From the NCBI GenBank assembly GCA_963752285.1, contig CAVVXN010000002.1, positions 545,729-609,728 of the forward strand: a stretch of DNA of 64,000 nucleotides. The letters are read 5' to 3'. Below, piece by piece: positions 5,531 to 61,766 of the stretch. The first letter of the stretch is position 1, and every line of letters starts with the position of its first letter. The notes under the pieces are model-generated. The model did not search any database. It was not told where the DNA came from and saw only the letters and a program-made list of their open reading frames with translations. This stretch comes from an uncultured Planctomycetota bacterium (GTDB taxonomy: Bacteria; Planctomycetota; PLA2; JAEUHO01). The translations under genes were made by a program, and so were the position numbers.

Positions 5531-6754
5531 GTGGACGCCCGGCTCGTCCTCGTCTGCGCCCGAGACCCTCGCCGGGGTCGGGCGCGGGCCGACGCGTACG
5601 TGCGCGCGCACGCGCGCGCCGCGGCAGCGCTGGACCTCGAGCCGCGGCTCGTCTGCGGGGGAGAGGACGAGGGACGCGCCGCGAGCCCGTCCGGGGTGGT
5701 GCGTCGGGTCCGGACCGGAGGCGCCGGCGGGGCGCTCGGCGTGCCGTTCGTCGTCGAGGCGCTGGCGGCCGCCGCGCTCGAGGAGGCGGAGGGCGCCGGC
5801 GCGGTGCTCTTCCACGGGTTCGGCCTCGGCGCGCACGCGGCGGTCGCCGCCGCCTCCCGCCTCGCGCGGCGTGGCGTCGAGGCGTACGGCGTCGCGAGCC
5901 TCGTCCCCACGGTCGAGGCCGGCACGGGGCCGGGCGCCTCGGCGTGGCTCGGCCGCCTCGGGGGCGCGTGGACGGCCGCGGCGGGGCTCGCCGCCGAGCG
6001 GAGCACGTGCCGGCGGGCCGACGCCGTGCTCGTCCACCACGAGGCGCACGGCGCGGCGCTCCTCCGGCGACACGGACGCGCGGTCCGGGTCCGGGTGGTC
6101 CCGTTCGCACCCGAGCACGCGTTCGACCGCGCGGCGCGCGAAGGCCTTCCGCGGTCGCGCGTGCTTTGCGGCGCGCCGATCGTGGTCGCGGCGGCGCGGC
6201 ACGTCCGGCCGCGCGGGATGGACCTCCTGCTCCGCGCGCTCGCGCGCCTCGAGAGGGACGGTGTGCGGTTCCGCGCGTACGTCCTCGGCGGCGGACCGTG
6301 CTACGAGGCGAACCGGCGGCTCGCGCGCGGGCTCGGGCTCGAGGGACGCGTCGCGCTCCTGGGCGACGGGCCGGAGGTCGAGCCGTACCTCGCGCGTGCC
6401 GACGTGTTCGTATGGCCGGCGCGCGAGGACCCCGGGGGCCCGGGCGCCGTGTTCGACGCGATCGCGGCCGGCGTGCCCGTGCTCGCGACGCGGGTGGGGG
6501 GGCTCGCCGAGGACCTCGTCCACGGGATCAGCGCCTGGCTCGTGCCGCCGGGGAGCGCCGACGCGCTGGCCGACGGCCTCGTCCACCTCCTCGGGGACCC
6601 GGCGCTTCGTGCGCGCCTCGCCGCCGGCGCGCGGGCGCGCGAGGCGACGCGCTTCTCGGCCGACCGGTTCGTGGCGGGGCTCGCCGCCGCGTACGCCGAG
6701 GCGGGGTTCGTGTGGACCGGCGTCGTCGCCGCCCCGGAGGGACGCGTACCCTGA
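5531..6754 (+). CDS. Glycosyltransferase family 4 (GT-B)
   Basis: YLARADVFVWP..AIAAGVPVLATRVGG..LVPPGSADALADGL. Confidence 0.85.
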   Translation: MDARLVLVCARDPRRGRARADAYVRAHARAAAALDLEPRLVCGGEDEGRAASPSGVVRRVRTGGAGGALGVPFVVEALAAAALEEAEGAGAVLFHGFGLGAHAAVAAASRLARRGVEAYGVASLVPTVEAGTGPGASAWLGRLGGAWTAAAGLAAERSTCRRADAVLVHHEAHGAALLRRHGRAVRVRVVPFAPEHAFDRAAREGLPRSRVLCGAPIVVAAARHVRPRGMDLLLRALARLERDGVRFRAYVLGGGPCYEANRRLARGLGLEGRVALLGDGPEVEPYLARADVFVWPAREDPGGPGAVFDAIAAGVPVLATRVGGLAEDLVHGISAWLVPPGSADALADGLVHLLGDPALRARLAAGARAREATRFSADRFVAGLAAAYAEAGFVWTGVVAAPEGRVP

Positions 6755-6758
6755 CCGC

Positions 6759-7526
6759 GTGTTGCGGAAGAGGACCCTCGGCCTCGCGTTCGTCGTCGTC
6801 ATGTCCGTCGCGTGCTCCCGCCGCGACGAGCCGGCGCGGTCCGCGCTGGGTGGCGCGCTGGGTGGCGCGCCGGATGCGAGCGACCTCGCGACGTCCGGTC
6901 GGCAGCTCGCTCCTCCGGAGCCGCCCGACGCGAAGCCCGAGGCGGGTCCCCGATCTCCTTCCCCCCCGGAGACACCCATGGCGACCGCCACGTTCGGCTG
7001 CGGATGCTTCTGGTGCGCCGAGGCGATCTTCGATCGCGTGGAGGGCGTGACCTCGGTCCGGTCGGGGTTCTCGGGCGGTCGCGGGAAGGACCCGAGCTAC
7101 GAGCTCGTCTGCACCGGGACGACCGGCCACGCCGAGGTGGTCCAGGTCGAGTACGACCCCGCCAAGGTGAGCTACGCGGAGCTCCTCCGCGTGTTCTTCG
7201 GGACCCACGACCCGACGACGAAGAACCGGCAGGGGCACGACGTCGGCTCGCAGTACCGCTCGATCATCCTGACGCACGACGACGAGCAGCGGCGCGTAGC
7301 CGAGGACGTGAAGGCGAAGCTGGACGCGTCGGGCGTGTACCCGAACCCGATCGTGACCGAGATCGTCCCCTTCGAGGCGTTCTACCCCGCGGACGCGCAC
7401 CATCAGGACTACTTCGCGCAGAACCCCGGGCAGGGCTACTGCCAGGCCGTGATCCGTCCGAAGGTCGAGAAGTTCGAGCAGGCGTTCCAGTCGATCCTGA
7501 AGGGCCAGGCGAAGCCCGCGCGCTGA
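6759..7526 (+). CDS. msrA: Peptide-methionine (S)-S-oxide reductase, possibly with signal peptide
   Basis: GCFWC, GTTGHAEVVQV, HDPTT.NRQGHDVGSQYRS, HQDYF; alternative ATG at 6978. Confidence 0.93.
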   Translation: MLRKRTLGLAFVVVMSVACSRRDEPARSALGGALGGAPDASDLATSGRQLAPPEPPDAKPEAGPRSPSPPETPMATATFGCGCFWCAEAIFDRVEGVTSVRSGFSGGRGKDPSYELVCTGTTGHAEVVQVEYDPAKVSYAELLRVFFGTHDPTTKNRQGHDVGSQYRSIILTHDDEQRRVAEDVKAKLDASGVYPNPIVTEIVPFEAFYPADAHHQDYFAQNPGQGYCQAVIRPKVEKFEQAFQSILKGQAKPAR

Positions 7527-27980: not shown

Positions 27981-28200
27981 GCCGAGAGCACGCCGAGAGC
28001 GCCGGCGCCGGGCGTCCCCCGCAGGGGCCAGAACTTCGCGGGTTCGCGACCCTCGGCCGCCGACCCACGCACGCGACGCGACCCGCCGCTCAACGCACGG
28101 ACTCTACGCTCTCCTCTCAGACTCTCGGTCGCGGGTGGAGAGGACCCGGACGTTTGACTCAGGTGTATGGAATGGGGTCCATTCCACATTCGAAATGGAG
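27981..28200 (+). repeat. Non-coding repeat type 2, copy A (empty IS target)
   Basis: Aligns with 32166-32320 plus 33829-33905 and with 61554-61766. Confidence 0.9.
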
Positions 28201-28653: not shown

Positions 28654-31600
28654 CTACGGGGTGACGGGCCTGGCGGGGCGGACGCCGAGGTTGTTGTCGC
28701 GGTCCCCCGGGTCGTCCCCGTCCCGGGCCGCGGAGCGCGCGTTCCCGGCGACGTTGATCCACGACCCGCCACGGAGCACGCGGAAGCCGGAGCCCTGCTG
28801 CACGAGCGGGTCGGTCGTCGGGCCCCGAGCGTACGCATGGGGCGAGTAGACGTCGCGGCACCACTCCCAGACGTTCCCGTGCACGTCGAACAGTCCGAAG
28901 GCGTTCGGCGCGAAGGACCCGGCCGGAGCGTGCACGCTGTGCCCGTCGTCCACCTCGGGCGTCACGGCGAACGTCGCCCCCCCGTGCCCCTTCAGCCAGG
29001 CGTCGGCGACGTTGGCGACCTCGCCCAGCTTCGAGACATCCCGGCCCGTGAACCAGGGCGTGTCCGTCCCCGCCCGGCAGGCGTACTCCCGCTGGGCCTC
29101 CGTGGGGAGCACGAGGCGGTTTCGCGACAGCCAGAGATCGCAGTCCTCCCATGAAACCTGCTCGACCGGGTTCCGGCCCGTGAGCGGCTTGTCGCCGAGC
29201 GTCTGCCCCGCCTTGTAGCGGCTCGGGTCCAGCCCTCCCGTCATCTCCTTCCACTCGGCCTGCGTGCACTCGTACTTCGACAGGAAGAAGGGCGAGAGCG
29301 TCACCTCGTGGACGGGCGACTCGTCGTCCTCGGCCTCGGGGGCGTAGTTCGGCCCGTCCTTGTCCTTCTTCTGCGCGCCCATCTGGAACGTCCCCCCCGG
29401 GATCAGGACCAGCACGACCGCGGCGTCCTCCTCCGGGACGAGGTGCCCCTTCTCGTCCCGCGTGGGGAATCGAGCCCGAGCCCAGCTGCGCAAACTCGAA
29501 GAGGTGGGAGTCCGGGATCCTCGCCCAACGGGACGAGCCCGAGCTGCCGCGTGATCACACAGGCCCCCGTACTTCGGGGAGGCCTTGATCGCCTCGATCG
29601 TCCGCTTCCACTCCTGCTCGTGGTCCTCGATCGAACGCTCGGCGGAGCGCGGTCACGAAGTCGCGGCGCTTCTCGATGTCGGCGAGGAAGCCGCCCTTTC
29701 CCCGCGCTCCCGCCCCCGTCGAGCCGGTCGAGACCCGCCAGCAGGTCCACGAGCACCTGGTGCTGCCAGTCCACCTGCGGGTCCTCGAAGGTCCAGGATT
29801 GTCGCTCCTCGAGCCCGGTCTCGAGCCTCGCCACCTCCTTCCTCACCGCCTCGGCCTGCTCGTCGAGCGCCTTCTTCTTCGCCTCGGCGTCGTCGCCCTC
29901 GATCTTTGCCTTTGCGGCCTCGATCTCCTCCAGGCGTTTCTTCCCCGTCTCGATCGGCCTTCGGTCCGCCTCGTGGTCCTTGGCCTTCGCTTCGTCCGTG
30001 TAGGGGAGGGCCTGCTCCCGGATCGCGGCGAGGCGCGTCTGATGGTCCCCGCGGCGTGCGAGGACGTCCTTGGTGCGCCTCGATCCAGGCCTCCATGTCG
30101 TGGGCCTTCTCGGGCACGAGCGGCCAGAGCCGGTCTGCCTCGGCCACGAGGTCGGCGACCTTCTTGGAGTCTGCGAGGCGGGCGATCTCGTCGTAGGCGC
30201 GGGTCTTCTCATCCAGGGCTCTGGTTTTCGCGTCGCGTTCAGTTGCAACCTGTTCGAGGGCCTTCGGCCTTCGCGTCGCGCTCCTGGTTCGCCCGGTCGC
30301 GTTCCTTGCCGACCTCCACGAGCGCCTCGGCCTTCTCCGACAGCGCCGCCTCGGTCGCGTGCTTCGCTTCGACCGCCTCCGTCCGCGCCTTCTCCGCCTC
30401 CTTCCTCTTGGCGTTGATTACCGTCGTCACCACGAACGCCGCCACCGCCACGACCGCCAGCGCGACGACCCCGACCCGTCGTAGCGTCCGCCGCGTGCTC
30501 GCCCGCTCCCGCTCCCGGATCGCTGTCTCCCGAAGCGCCTGCGCCCGCTCGGTGAGCGCCCTGGCCCGCCTGTCCGCCCGGCCGCTTCGCTCTCCGCCTG
30601 GGCCAGCGCCGCCGCCGCCCGGTCCACCTGTTGGAGCCTCGCTTCGCCCGTGAGGCGCTCGGCGGACTCCAGCGCCGTGCGGGCGTCCCGGAGCAGCCCC
30701 TCCCGCTCCCGCTCCGCGGCGTCCTCGACCTGCCAGGCCCGGACCGCCTTCGCCATCTCCTCGGCCGAGGCGGGCCGCGCCTCCTTCTCCCGCGCGAGCG
30801 CCTTGGCTGAGAGCGAGGAGAGGGCCTCCGGCACCGAGGGATCCACCTCGCGGGCCTCAGGCGGGTCCTTCCGGAGCAGCAGCGCCGCGTACTCCGCGTA
30901 GGAGCGGAACGCGAACGGCAGCCGCCCCGTCAGGATCTCGTAGAGCATCGCCCCCAGGCTGTAGACGTCGCTTCGCTGGTCCACCTCCGCGAGCCTTCCC
31001 AGCGTCGCCTCGGGCGACATGTAGCCCGCCGTCCCGATCGCGCCCCCCTCCATCGTGTGGAAGCCCGCGTCGTGGCGCATCTCCTCGACGCGCTCCTGCC
31101 AGGCCGAGGAGGCCACGTCCTCCTTCCCCTCCAGCCGCGCGAGGCCCCAGTCGAGCAGCACCACCTCGCCGTACTGGCCGAGAGCGACGTTCGCGGGCTT
31201 CAGGTCCCGGTGGACGACCCCCTTGTCGTGGGCGTAGCGCAGCGTGTCGCAGACCTTGAGGAAGGGCTCCAAGAGCGCGAGCCGCTCCTCGATCGGGACG
31301 CCCTTCTTGTCCCGGATCGCGTCGGCGAGCGTTCGTTCTCCGCGCACGTAGCGCATCGTGTAGTAGGGAATGCCGGTCGGCGTCTGGCCGATCTCGTAGA
31401 CGGGTACGATCCCGGGGTGCTCCAGACCCCCCGTGACCCACGCCTCCTGGACCAGCCGGGCCTTCAACTGTTCGAAGACCTCCGACTCGGGCGTGTCCTT
31501 CCCGGGCTTGGAGGCGTCCAGCGGGTGCGACGGCGTCGCCTCGTCCTTGCCGCGCTCGGCATGGGGCCGAACCATCTTGAAGGCCACCCGGCGGTTCATC

Positions 31601-32040
31601 TCCGTGTCGATGGCCGCGTAGACGACCCCCATCCCGCCGATGCCCGCGGCCTCGAAGCCCACGTAGCGGTCCGCGGGCAGGGAGCGCAGCGGCGCACGGA
31701 TGGGGACGCCCAACACCGAGAGGGCGCGCGTCAGGTTCGCCCCGCCGTGGCCCAGCGCCAGGTGGATCGAGCGGTCCAGGCCGCCGTGGCGGGTGAGGGC
31801 GACCTGTGCGTCCCCCCCCGCTTCGCCCACGAGTCGCTCGACCTCGGCGCGGATTCGGGCGAGCGCGTCGTCGGACAGCCGCGCGATGTGGGCGAGCTCC
31901 GACCCGAAGGACGCGCCCGGTTCATCCCGCCGTGGCCAGTAGCGCATCAGGGCCGCCGCGACGTCATGCGCCTCGGCGACGCCCAGCATCAACGCCGCGT
32001 CGGCCGCGAGCAACTCACGGAACTCCCTGCCGGCTTCCAT
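28654..32040 (-). pseudogene. Ser/Thr kinase - TM - coiled coil - FGE-sulfatase (CLec) protein, multiply frameshifted
   Basis: GIGGMGVVY, HRDLKPAN, DWGLA, GTAGYMSPE; IPGGTFQMG, LPTEAQREYACRAG, PNAFGLFDVHGNVWEW, RVLRGGSW; domains in different frames between about 29480 and 30600. Confidence 0.85.
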
Positions 32041-32165
32041 CCCATGCCCTCCGAAGCCACAGGAGGATACCGACCGGGACTCCGAGAAGGACACGCCCTG
32101 GCACGCCGAGGCCCAGGCCCGCTCCTGCGCAGCCCAGAGCGGCAGGTCGGCCAGGGCACGTAGCA

Positions 32166-32320
32166 CCGCGAGAGGCCGGAGATCAGGCGGAAAGGCCGGC
32201 TTCGGCGAGGCGCCCGCAGAGGCCAGAACTTCGCGGGTTCGCGGCCCTCAGCCGCCGACCCACGCACGCGAGGCGACCCGCCGCTCAACACACGGATTCT
32301 ACGCACTCCTCTCGAACTCT
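32166..32320 (+). repeat. Non-coding repeat type 2, copy B left part (interrupted by IS)
   Basis: Homology to copy A stops at GAACTCT 32320 and resumes at 33829. Confidence 0.9.
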
Positions 32321-32394
32321 GATGTGGCCCCCGCTGTCAAGGGCGTTCTCGCTTGTCAATCCTGCTCGTCAGGGGGGCGCCCGTTCGCGAGGAA

Positions 32395-32575
32395 GGGAGA
32401 CCGGGGAGGAGCGTTCGACAGCGTGACACTCTGATGTGCGCGGATCGGAACCGCATTCAAGCACTTCGTCGGGAGAGTCCTCAATCTCTGGCCGCGAATG
32501 CGCCGGCCGAAGCCGAAGCTCGCACAGAGTTCGCGAGGGTTTCTCCAACGTCAACGCCTCCCCGGTCTCGAACTC
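32395..32575 (-). ncRNA. Predicted bridge/seek RNA of the IS
   Basis: 13-bp closing IR 32397-32409 / 32557-32569, nested stems, loop segments matching target flanks and IS ends. Confidence 0.75.
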
Positions 32576-32579
32576 GTGT

Positions 32580-33698
32580 TCAGGCTCGTGGCGCGCGAGC
32601 AGCCAGGTGCTGCTCCTCGCCACCCATCAGGGCCCACGCGAACCCAGCCAGTTCGCGGGCGACCGCCACCGCGGCTTTCGTGGAGGCGAGCCGCGACTCC
32701 AGCTGCTGGAAGCGCCGGTACAACCTTCGCTGCGCCCGCAGCGCGTGCAGCCGCACCGGTTCGGGCTGTCCCTCGAGACGCGACTCGAGGTCCCTGCCGA
32801 CGCGGGGCGGGTGGCGGCACTGCCAGGCGGCTTCGACGAGAACCCGGCGGCAGGCGGCGTTGCCAGCTTTCGTGATGCCGCCTCGCTTCTCCCTGCCGGC
32901 GGAGGAGTGCTCGCTCACGTTGAGGCCGAGCCAGGCCATGAACGAGCGCGCCGTCGGGAACCGCCGTACGTCGCCGATCTCGGCGGCGAGCGTCATCGCC
33001 GTGAGGACCTTCACGCCGCGTAGCGTGCAGAGACGCCCCACGACGTCGCTCCACGGCTCCTCCTTGGCGATCTCGCCCAGCCTGTCGTCCAGGCGCTTGC
33101 GCAGGAACAGCTTGTGCTCGAGGAGATCGACGTACATAGCCAGCGTCAGGGTGTCCTCGCCCGCCAGCTCGATGCTTCGGAGCCACTTCCAGAACGAGTT
33201 GGTCCAGTTCGTGCCCGCACGATACGAGTGGCCCCTACTCTGCAGGAGCTTCAGGATGTAGTGCCGCGACGCGAGGATCTCGCGAGTGAGGGCGTAGCGC
33301 GCACGCACCAGGGAGCGCACGCGCTCCTCTTCCTCCGTCGGAACCCGGATCGCGGTGAGCTCGCCCGCACGAAACAGATGGGCGAGCCTGGCGGCATCGC
33401 GTCGGTCGGTCTTGAGGCGCTCTCCGGGCCGACGGGGGATCAGGCTCGGCGCGATCACCTCGCACGCGAAGCCCCACTTGGTCATGGAACGCTGCAGCAC
33501 GTAGCCGCAGGAACTGGCTTCGTAACAGGCGTGTACCGGCCCCACCTTCCCGACCGATCGGAAAAAGCGCCGCAGTCGCGCCGGGTCGTTGGCCATCGTC
33601 TCGATTCGACGACACTCCGGCGCCCCCTCCGGGAGGACGGCCAACGTCACCGTGTCCTGGTGGAGATCGACGCCAACGAACTGGGTAGGCTGATGCAT
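32580..33698 (-). CDS. IS110-family transposase/recombinase
   Basis: DEDD RuvC motifs VGVDLH, CYEA, KTDRRDA; C-terminal GL..SEHSSAG, ARELAGF; GAGGAGG RBS. Confidence 0.95.
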   Translation of the reverse strand: MHQPTQFVGVDLHQDTVTLAVLPEGAPECRRIETMANDPARLRRFFRSVGKVGPVHACYEASSCGYVLQRSMTKWGFACEVIAPSLIPRRPGERLKTDRRDAARLAHLFRAGELTAIRVPTEEEERVRSLVRARYALTREILASRHYILKLLQSRGHSYRAGTNWTNSFWKWLRSIELAGEDTLTLAMYVDLLEHKLFLRKRLDDRLGEIAKEEPWSDVVGRLCTLRGVKVLTAMTLAAEIGDVRRFPTARSFMAWLGLNVSEHSSAGREKRGGITKAGNAACRRVLVEAAWQCRHPPRVGRDLESRLEGQPEPVRLHALRAQRRLYRRFQQLESRLASTKAAVAVARELAGFAWALMGGEEQHLAARAPRA

Positions 33699-33828
33699 GG
33701 CTGGGCCTCCTCGGTCGTGACCCGCTGGTCACGTTTGGGACAGGCCCCGGTGTAGGCCGGGGCAACCCCAGGACCCCGGGGAGGCCCCGCCACAGACCTC
33801 CCGCGGACCCGAGCGGGGGCCATGCTGT

Positions 33829-33905
33829 CTCGGTCGCGGGGCGAGAGGACCCTGACGTTCAACTCAGGTGTATGGAGTGGGGTCCACCCTGGGTGCGAAA
33901 TAGAG
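33829..33905 (+). repeat. Non-coding repeat type 2, copy B right part
   Basis: Matches 28124-28200. Confidence 0.88.
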
Positions 33906-61553: not shown

Positions 61554-61766
61554 CCGCGAGAGGCCGGAGAGCACGCCGAGAGGACCGCCCCGGAGCGGCG
61601 CCCGCAGGGGCCAGAACTTCGGGGCTCACGGGATGTGCGCCTCGGCGGCGCCGCAGACGCCCCGCCCCGGCGTTGAACTCACGGACTCTACGCCATCCTC
61701 TCAGACTCTCGGTCCCGGGGAGAGAGGGCCCGGTTGGTTAACAGCCAGTCGCGAATGGGCGCCCAC
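61554..61766 (+). repeat. Non-coding repeat type 2, copy D (diverged, empty IS target)
   Basis: Shares CCGCGAGAGGCCGGAGA, CCCGCAGGGGCCAGAACTTCG, CACGGACTCTACGC, TCCTCTCAGACTCTCGGTC and GAATGGG. Confidence 0.85.

Follow-up and report, generated by a model that had tools for sequence, protein, structure and literature searches.

What selects the site of an insertion sequence (IS) that occupies one copy of an intergenic repeat? The question is raised by a 64,000-nucleotide (nt) stretch of DNA from an uncultured Planctomycetota bacterium (the window in what follows), which is part of contig C2 of a genome of 4.64 Mb in 5 contigs with 73% G+C. Comparison with homologous loci suggests that the element is very probably an IS110-family IS of the IS1111 type, whose recombinase takes its guidance from a single RNA encoded immediately downstream of its gene. 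A first-pass annotation of the window had proposed an IS1111-type element with a two-armed guide RNA, inserted in a genomic repeat, and the subterminal inverted repeats, the downstream non-coding region and the order of the guides described below bear this out.

The limits of the element were read from empty copies of the flanking repeat, which connect position 32320 with 33829/33831, the left and right matches sharing 2 bp. The flanks of the element run uninterrupted at C2:573754-573909 (window 28026-28181) and at C4:42-195. Since they are contiguous elsewhere with a 2-bp overlap, a length of 1,508 bp follows for the element, to which a CT core present in duplicate is added. The insertion target is CGAACT-CT-CGGTC, in one of five intergenic copies of a repeat of about 160-190 bp each. 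The subterminal inverted repeats, which measure 7-17 bp in IS1111 elements, are 11 bp long here; the non-coding DNA downstream of the gene is longer than that upstream (259 nt vs. 130 nt); and the match to the top strand of the target lies 5' of the match to the bottom strand, top and bottom being taken relative to the strand of the gene. Within the IS110 family these features give the element an IS1111-type architecture, the type being assigned from architecture.

The recombinase carries two Pfam domains above their cut-offs, PF01548 (DEDD_Tnp_IS110, 5e-14) and PF02371 (Transposase_20, 9.5e-22), and scores 228.8 bits (cut-off 140) on the NCBIfam model NF033542, "IS110 family RNA-guided transposase". 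It covers 100% of the length of its homologues of 372 amino acids (aa). Residues D11, E60, D98, D101 and S266, invariant or near-invariant across 45 aligned sequences, are all present, their catalytic roles being carried over from D11/E60/D102/D105/S241 of IS621 by position and spacing, not by structure. The serine motif reads GLNVSEHSSA (GLNVSE-SSG in the clade), with V replacing the P of the motif GL-P----S(t)G described for IS1111 elements (PMC11187229). The family to which the protein belongs is very large, with 7,879 of the 8,000 candidates scored lying at E <= 1e-30 and a best non-self match of 78% identity. The element already belongs to this described RNA-guided IS110/IS1111 family and is an ordinary new member of it.

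Downstream of the gene, minimum free energy (MFE) folding and a stem search both found the 13-bp outer stem that had been annotated as enclosing two arms (GAGACCGGGGAGG/CCUCCCCGGUCUC, 32557-32569 with 32397-32409), and MFE folding also recovered arm 1. In 10 of 12 loci inspected for this feature, outer stems of 9-15 bp with unrelated sequences surround a segment of 170-196 nt in the corresponding position. A covariance model, R1, was made from 11 aligned RNAs, with four RNAalifold helices to which P4 and one P5 pair were added by hand. The model matches 93 of 98 sources, every time downstream of the recombinase gene and on its strand; the five misses are four contigs ending <=68 nt from the gene and one truncated gene copy. 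Its single match in the 64-kb window lies at 32394-32569 on the minus strand (143.8 bits). Rfam 15 contained no family matching over the RNA, its only match being a chance microRNA inside the open reading frame (ORF; E 0.73).

Covariation across the relatives supports the helices. Over 85 distinct rows, 92.4% of 2,228 helix cells were paired, compared to 76.9% after shuffling, and double-change cells numbered 336 against 97.6 in the shuffles. None of 500 shuffles reached any observed covariation measure, and sliding the partner by 1-3 columns reduced pairing to 32-51%. Compensatory changes were present in 21 of 27 pairs, and all helices are intact in the window copy. Arm 1 is laid out as P2, a 10-nt loop strand, the P3 hairpin, a second 10-nt loop strand and P2 again (10 nt in 75 of 85 RNAs for the 5' strand, the T loop, and in 82 of 85 for the 3' strand, the B loop). 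Arm 2 follows the order P4, 11-nt loop strand (D5), P5 hairpin, 18-nt loop strand (D3), P4.

The homologous loci came from genomes and metagenome contigs. Relatives were found in 4 of 40 genomes of the order (E <= 1e-40) and in 10 of 401 of the phylum (E <= 1e-60), the source genome counted in both, which leaves 9 other genomes among the 401; of 597 metagenome contig stretches 560 were relatives, and the best 80 of these were kept. A single-protein search of genome contigs yielded no relative among 52 candidate stretches, and the closest proteins (60-78% identity) are not among the DNA loci compared. The source genome itself contains a paralogue on contig C4 with 67% aa and 71% DNA identity to the window element. 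IS ends were located without the guides, from subterminal inverted repeats and AG on both sides, in 58 of the 93 RNA loci; 57 of these were unique and 52, the basis of all guide counts below, had at least 8 nt of both flanks. Dropped were 35 loci without such AG-bounded ends (short contigs or unrecognised ends), one duplicate and five with flanks shorter than 8 nt. Because the end search required AG, agreement at the core across loci is by construction. Permuted pairings of loops with flanks or ends among the 52 loci served as controls.

Arm 1 follows the target. In the window, T positions 2-9 match the site at 8 of 8 nt. Across the loci, T positions 3-7 track the right-end flank (0.65-0.90 vs. 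0.23-0.28 in the control) and T position 10 tracks the last nt of the other flank (0.85 vs. 0.57), and guide 1, the 5' strand of arm 1 in the first-pass annotation, thus holds beyond chance. T positions 2-7 have entropies of 1.77-1.97 bits between near-invariant stems and form 72 distinct hexamers among the 85 RNAs. The new specificity that had been claimed for the window element can be claimed for nearly every member of a family already annotated as RNA-guided. On the 3' strand, B positions 3-5 track the 3 nt of the opposite flank before the core (0.52/0.87/0.96 vs. 0.28/0.31/0.54) and B positions 8-9 match the first two nt of the IS (1.00/0.67 vs. 0.82/0.32), while B positions 1-2 showed no covariation with the flank (0.19/0.33 vs. 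0.23/0.26). Compared to the expected GACCG-AG-ACA (5 flank nt, core and first 3 IS nt), the window B loop agrees at positions 1, 3, 5, 6, 7 and 8. Scored at ten informative positions, the 52 loci reached 10 in 5 cases, 9 in 15, 8 in 16, 7 in 10, 6 in 3 and 4 in 3.

Arm 2 follows the IS ends, the left one less clearly. D3 positions 2-8 equal the right end plus core at all 7 positions in 52 of 52 loci (control 0.56-0.89 at the variable positions), and the IS-end guide CACAUCAG annotated on this strand is accordingly beyond chance. D3 positions 9-11, compared with the right flank as a test for handshake pairing, gave a weak signal at position 9 alone (0.38 vs. 0.18); the window matches at 3 of 3. 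The 5' strand, D5, is probably the left-end guide, as its agreement with left-end nt 2-5 suggests (0.79/0.62/0.44/0.69 vs. 0.41/0.36/0.25/0.51). By eye, D5 reads GCU, CGU, CUU and CGU in step with left ends GCT, CGT, CTT and CGT in the four closest loci inspected, namely the window element, the C4 paralogue, G007 and G003.

This guide map departs from the first one in two of the four guides. The strings on which the latter was based are present in the DNA: CGAACUCU is the reverse complement of 32526-32533 and identical to 32313-32320, and CGCGGCCAGAGA, CACAUCAGA and CACGCUGUC are the reverse complements of 32485-32496, 32430-32438 and 32417-32425. It assigned to arm 1 a bulged right-flank guide of 12 nt, CGCG included, and to the 3' strand of arm 2 the string CACGCUGUC as a further donor guide, in an order noted as atypical. 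With one bulged A, the 10-nt CGCGGCC[A]GAG does show nine identical positions and one G-T pair against the flank CGCGACCGAG, and CACGCUGUC fits the left end at 8 of 9 positions. However, CGCG is part of UCGCG, the 3' strand of P3; this strand pairs with UGCGA and stays conserved across different targets, and the first two loop positions do not covary with the flank. In register with the 10-nt loops of 82 of 85 homologues, the strand becomes GCCAG-AG-AUU, of which 2 of 3 covarying positions are matched; the loop part of the proposed guide, about 3 nt plus core, is retained. CACGCUGUC, for its part, matches just as often as the control at each of its 9 positions, it overlaps P4, and in the C4 paralogue only 5 of 9 positions fit. 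With the 5' strand of arm 2 as the probable left-end guide, nothing about the order is atypical, and the impression that it was arose from a misassignment. Folding and covariation across homologues, the check suggested with the first map, thus uphold the helices and two guides and correct the other two, and we consider it very improbable that the first map is right as a whole.

In the mechanism that we propose, a recombinase combining a DEDD RuvC-like domain with a Tnp domain that bears the catalytic serine would be guided by an RNA in which an outer stem encloses two arms, both containing an internal loop. Arm 1 would read the target. Its 5' strand, GCGAACUCUG, would base-pair to one strand of the DNA along 5-7 nt of the right-end flank and the CT/AG core. 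Its 3' strand, GCCAG-AG-AUU, would base-pair to the second DNA strand along about 3 nt of the flank on the other side and the core, continuing for 1-2 nt into the left end of the IS in a handshake-like manner. Arm 2 would read the donor, that is, the joined IS ends: ACAUCAG on its 3' strand repeats the right end and the core exactly, and its 5' strand carries a shorter complement of left-end nt 2-6. The insertion itself took place at the target given above, in one copy of the five-copy repeat. The anatomy, the structural covariation and the covariation of guides with flanks and with ends across homologues are direct observations. By analogy with IS621 and ISEc11, we infer that the element expresses this RNA, that the recombinase binds it and is directed by it in strand exchange, and that the window copy is still active.

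Changes of guide and flank can be followed within this genome and beyond it. The C4 paralogue (locus L069, about 5900-7330) has the same RNA architecture, and its guides CACCACU and UGCCAG fit its own, different flanks; the two elements are a natural retargeted pair in one genome. Guides and flanks also differ in step between the near-identical RNAs L072 and L073. Contigs of four metagenome runs were aligned to the region, with depths of 2-10 that inform on the presence of junctions, not on their frequencies. One of them (X2 record 11) spans the window's own left junction, and two (X2 record 12 and X3 record 14) connect the same IS ends to other flanks. X1 record 2 has 13 differences over 592 nt; two of them are substitutions within guide 1, which becomes CUGACUCU. 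It adjoins another flank, ...CCGACTCT, in agreement with one of the two changes.

The window B loop equals the loop of the C4 paralogue moved by 2 nt (GCCAGAGAUU and GUGCCAGAGA, respectively), and the last nt of the T loop still suits the unshifted register. Other left junctions reading CAG-AG, as the shifted B loop specifies, occur at a solo end at C4:8021-8051 and in X2 record 12. From these sequences, the bottom-strand target guide could have been retargeted by sliding and not by substitution, which we regard as a clearly improbable reading; the former post-core AG would then now be the core, and the T loop would keep the old partner nucleotide. The solo end is a 23-31-bp left end of a window-type IS adjoining ...GCAGGCAG-AG. 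It has neither a recombinase gene nor an RNA beside it and lies about 700 bp from the C4 paralogue.

A number of observations weigh against the RNA-guided mechanism or its continued operation in the window copy. The fold energy of the RNA falls short of significance (z = -1.91, with 11 of 200 shuffles folding equally well or better), and the alignment underlying the pairing counts (A3) was fitted to model R1, favouring structure, and consists of related sequences. Many of the 52 loci are likewise related, so that the permuted controls overstate independence. The signal for a left-end guide is modest, and the 4 nt that it spans in the window do not adjoin the core. An unexceptional fold energy would also suit a downstream region that acts as DNA, with sites for the recombinase or for a host factor, and not as an RNA guide; the matches to the flanks would then stem from a site preference of the protein. 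Against such sites stand the compensatory changes, the hypervariable loops between conserved stems, and guides complementary to both DNA strands that overlap at the core, as in the proven IS621 and ISEc11-type RNAs, and we regard this explanation as scarcely tenable.

The remaining points concern the window copy itself. Its T position 10 mismatches the site; its B loop matches 2 of 3 informative flank positions, the core and position 8 but is mismatched at position 4; and the last T nt is not complementary to B position 5, as it is in 72 of 85 RNAs; the window copy is one of the 13 exceptions. With 7 of ten informative positions, the window scores below 36 loci, equal to 9 others and above 6. 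The genome contains only one full copy of the IS, and the repeat copy on C5, with a core (GACCG-AG-AGTTCGAGAGG) identical to the occupied target, is unoccupied; in each of the other three empty copies, 2 positions depart from guide 1. In the protein, catalytic S266 is followed by A267, where 43 of 45 aligned sequences have G and two, including the window, have A. The corresponding glycine of IS621, G242, is described as conserved and hydrogen-bonded to D102, and "TA" variants at the serine-glycine motif are reported for IS1111 elements. The single copy, A267, the 2-nt shift of the B loop with its mismatch at position 4, the T10 mismatch, the identical empty target on C5 and the solo left-end remnant on C4 would all suit an element that has the bridge-RNA architecture but is a stranded or decaying relic no longer transposing. 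Yet the ORF is intact and full length, as are all RNA helices, and A at position 267 recurs in one other aligned sequence. Further, metagenome contigs that are 95-100% alike (X2 record 12, X3 record 14 and X1 record 2) place the same IS ends at other flanks, and two independent left junctions read CAG-AG, exactly as the shifted B loop specifies. We therefore consider a relic possible but unlikely.

Taken as an RNA-guided element, the window IS resembles several characterised systems. As described for the seekRNA elements ISEc11, ISPa11, ISKpn4 and ISPst6 (Siddiquee et al. 2024, PMC11187229), it has subterminal inverted repeats, a long non-coding region downstream of the gene, and an RNA whose top-strand-complementary segment lies 5' of the bottom-strand one, the two overlapping in the target; the seekRNAs of these four IS1111 members were reported to be required and programmable. 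The window recombinase is longer than the 330-350 aa given there for the IS1111 family, and its RNA differs from the seekRNAs as there described in that a second, probably donor-reading arm is evident. The recombinase is about 24% identical to that of IS4321; model R1 has no match at the IS4321 locus and a weak one (19 bits) in a Klebsiella plasmid relative. In IS1111 elements, bridge RNAs were predicted by covariance models in 93% of cases, in the right end (Durrant et al. 2024, PMC11208160). The window clade differs from the IS1111-group RNAs described in that study, since in its arm 2 P4 and P5 close a plain internal loop.

IS621 (PMC11208160, PMC11208158) shares with the window element two internal loops, each with two guides for opposite strands that overlap at a CT core (the left-end guide of the window element being a probable one), and a composite active site of DEDD residues and serine; its handshake guides are resembled by B positions 8-9 of the window clade, which reach past the core into the IS. 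The loop geometry matches when the window is read on the other DNA strand: in IS621 the 5' guide reproduces the left target together with CT, and the 3' guide is the complement of CT and the right target. In contrast to IS621, as described, the RNA lies downstream and not upstream of the gene, the subterminal inverted repeats are long, and gene and RNA have the opposite orientation with respect to the core, which consequently reads AG on the strand of the gene. Protein similarity is marginal both to IS621 (phmmer E 8e-10 over residues 200-311) and to ISCro4. By its description, ISPpu9 of Pseudomonas putida (PMC12288879) is similar in two respects: it is an IS110-family element that sits in repetitive extragenic sequences, and a gene for a small RNA lies downstream of its transposase. 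The coordinates of all features are collected in Table 1.

Table 1. Features of the insertion sequence, its predicted guide RNA and the target repeat (window positions unless a contig is named; a dot denotes no strand).
Feature	Position	Strand	Remarks
Insertion sequence, 1,508 bp excluding core copies	32321..33828	-	recombinase gene and RNA both on minus strand
Recombinase gene, 372 aa, open, full length	32580..33698	-	Pfam, NCBIfam, homologue alignment
Bridge/seek RNA, ~173 nt, outer stem to outer stem	32397..32569	-	covariance model R1, stem search, MFE fold
Arm 1, 5' loop strand (T loop), GCGAACUCUG	32525..32534	-	positions 2-9 (CGAACUCU) equal plus-strand flank + core 32313-32320
Arm 1, 3' loop strand (B loop), GCCAG-AG-AUU	32483..32492	-	register with homologous 10-nt loops
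Arm 2, 5' loop strand (D5), AAGUGCUUGAA	32456..32466	-	UGCU (32460-32463) complementary to left-end nt 3-6 (AGCA)
Arm 2, 3' loop strand (D3)	32421..32438	-	positions 2-8, ACAUCAG (32431-32437), exact copy of last 5 nt of right end + core
Second donor guide of first-pass annotation, CACGCUGUC	32417..32425	-	overlaps P4 3' strand UGUCG (32416-32420); not supported
Core dinucleotide CT (AG on recombinase-sense strand), right-end copy	32319..32320	.	empty-site comparison
Core dinucleotide CT, left-end copy	33829..33830	.	empty-site comparison
Left subterminal inverted repeat, 11 bp, TGGCCCCCGCU on recombinase-sense strand	33812..33822	.	6 nt inside end
Right subterminal inverted repeat, 11 bp, AGCGGGGGCCA on recombinase-sense strand	32325..32335	.	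4 nt inside end
Conserved TTGACA pointing outward across right end	32335..32340	-	candidate -35 box
Occupied repeat copy, left half (plus strand)	32221..32320	.	92%/89% identity to C2:573754-573853 / C4:42-137
Occupied repeat copy, right half	33829..33886	.	90% identity to C2:573852-573909 and C4:136-195
Empty repeat copy in window	28026..28181	.	reads CAGACTCT-CGGTC; 2 positions off guide 1
Further, more diverged empty repeat copy in window	61609..61709	.	71% identity
Empty repeat copy outside window	C4:42-195	.	alignment to flanks
Fifth, diverged, empty repeat copy	C5:~1089570-1089690	.	19-bp target core same as occupied site

The TTGACA at the right end may be the -35 box of a junction promoter; 49 of the 52 loci have a TTGAC at a distance of 12-18 nt from the core, and junction promoters have been reported for IS621 and ISEc21. 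The right end with this outward motif faces a Ser/Thr-kinase-like ORF of 579 aa on the minus strand (30427-32166), whose start is about 155 bp distant and whose transcription the insertion could change. The repeat family, intergenic and with copies of about 160-190 bp, contains a tandem CGAGAG..(C/T)GAGAG motif. No unusual DNA fold of the target repeat was found (z +1.23), nor was the rejoined 16-nt target enriched in the window at <=3 mismatches (5 found vs. 5.08 expected, two of the five being repeat copies).

Three IS110-family genes of the genome exceed the NF033542 cut-off, the third lying at C5:342583-343572 (185 bits). Residues 186-277 of the window recombinase show a weak, sub-threshold match to a model of the TIGR-Tas RNA-guided endonucleases (22.4 bits, cut-off 100), in line with published links of IS110 recombinases to other RNA-guided proteins. 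Three copies of a distant relative in genome G154 (L077, L079 and L081) share an identical right flank and have a right junction other than AG; they were excluded, and either the element is longer than assumed or the copies lie inside another repeat.

The window element adds to a known family and opens no new question. It is a well-delimited natural example, with both ends, empty sites, a paralogue of other guides in the same genome and metagenome variants. The guide map of its clade comprises a target loop of 10 nt and 10 nt that reads about 5+2+3 bp, a right end that is copied exactly and a left end that is probably read, though weakly, and it could help in choosing or reprogramming such recombinases. 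If the sliding reading were true and the element active, bridge RNAs would tolerate a non-complementary loop overlap and a mismatch adjacent to the core, and register shifts would be a natural route to new targets.

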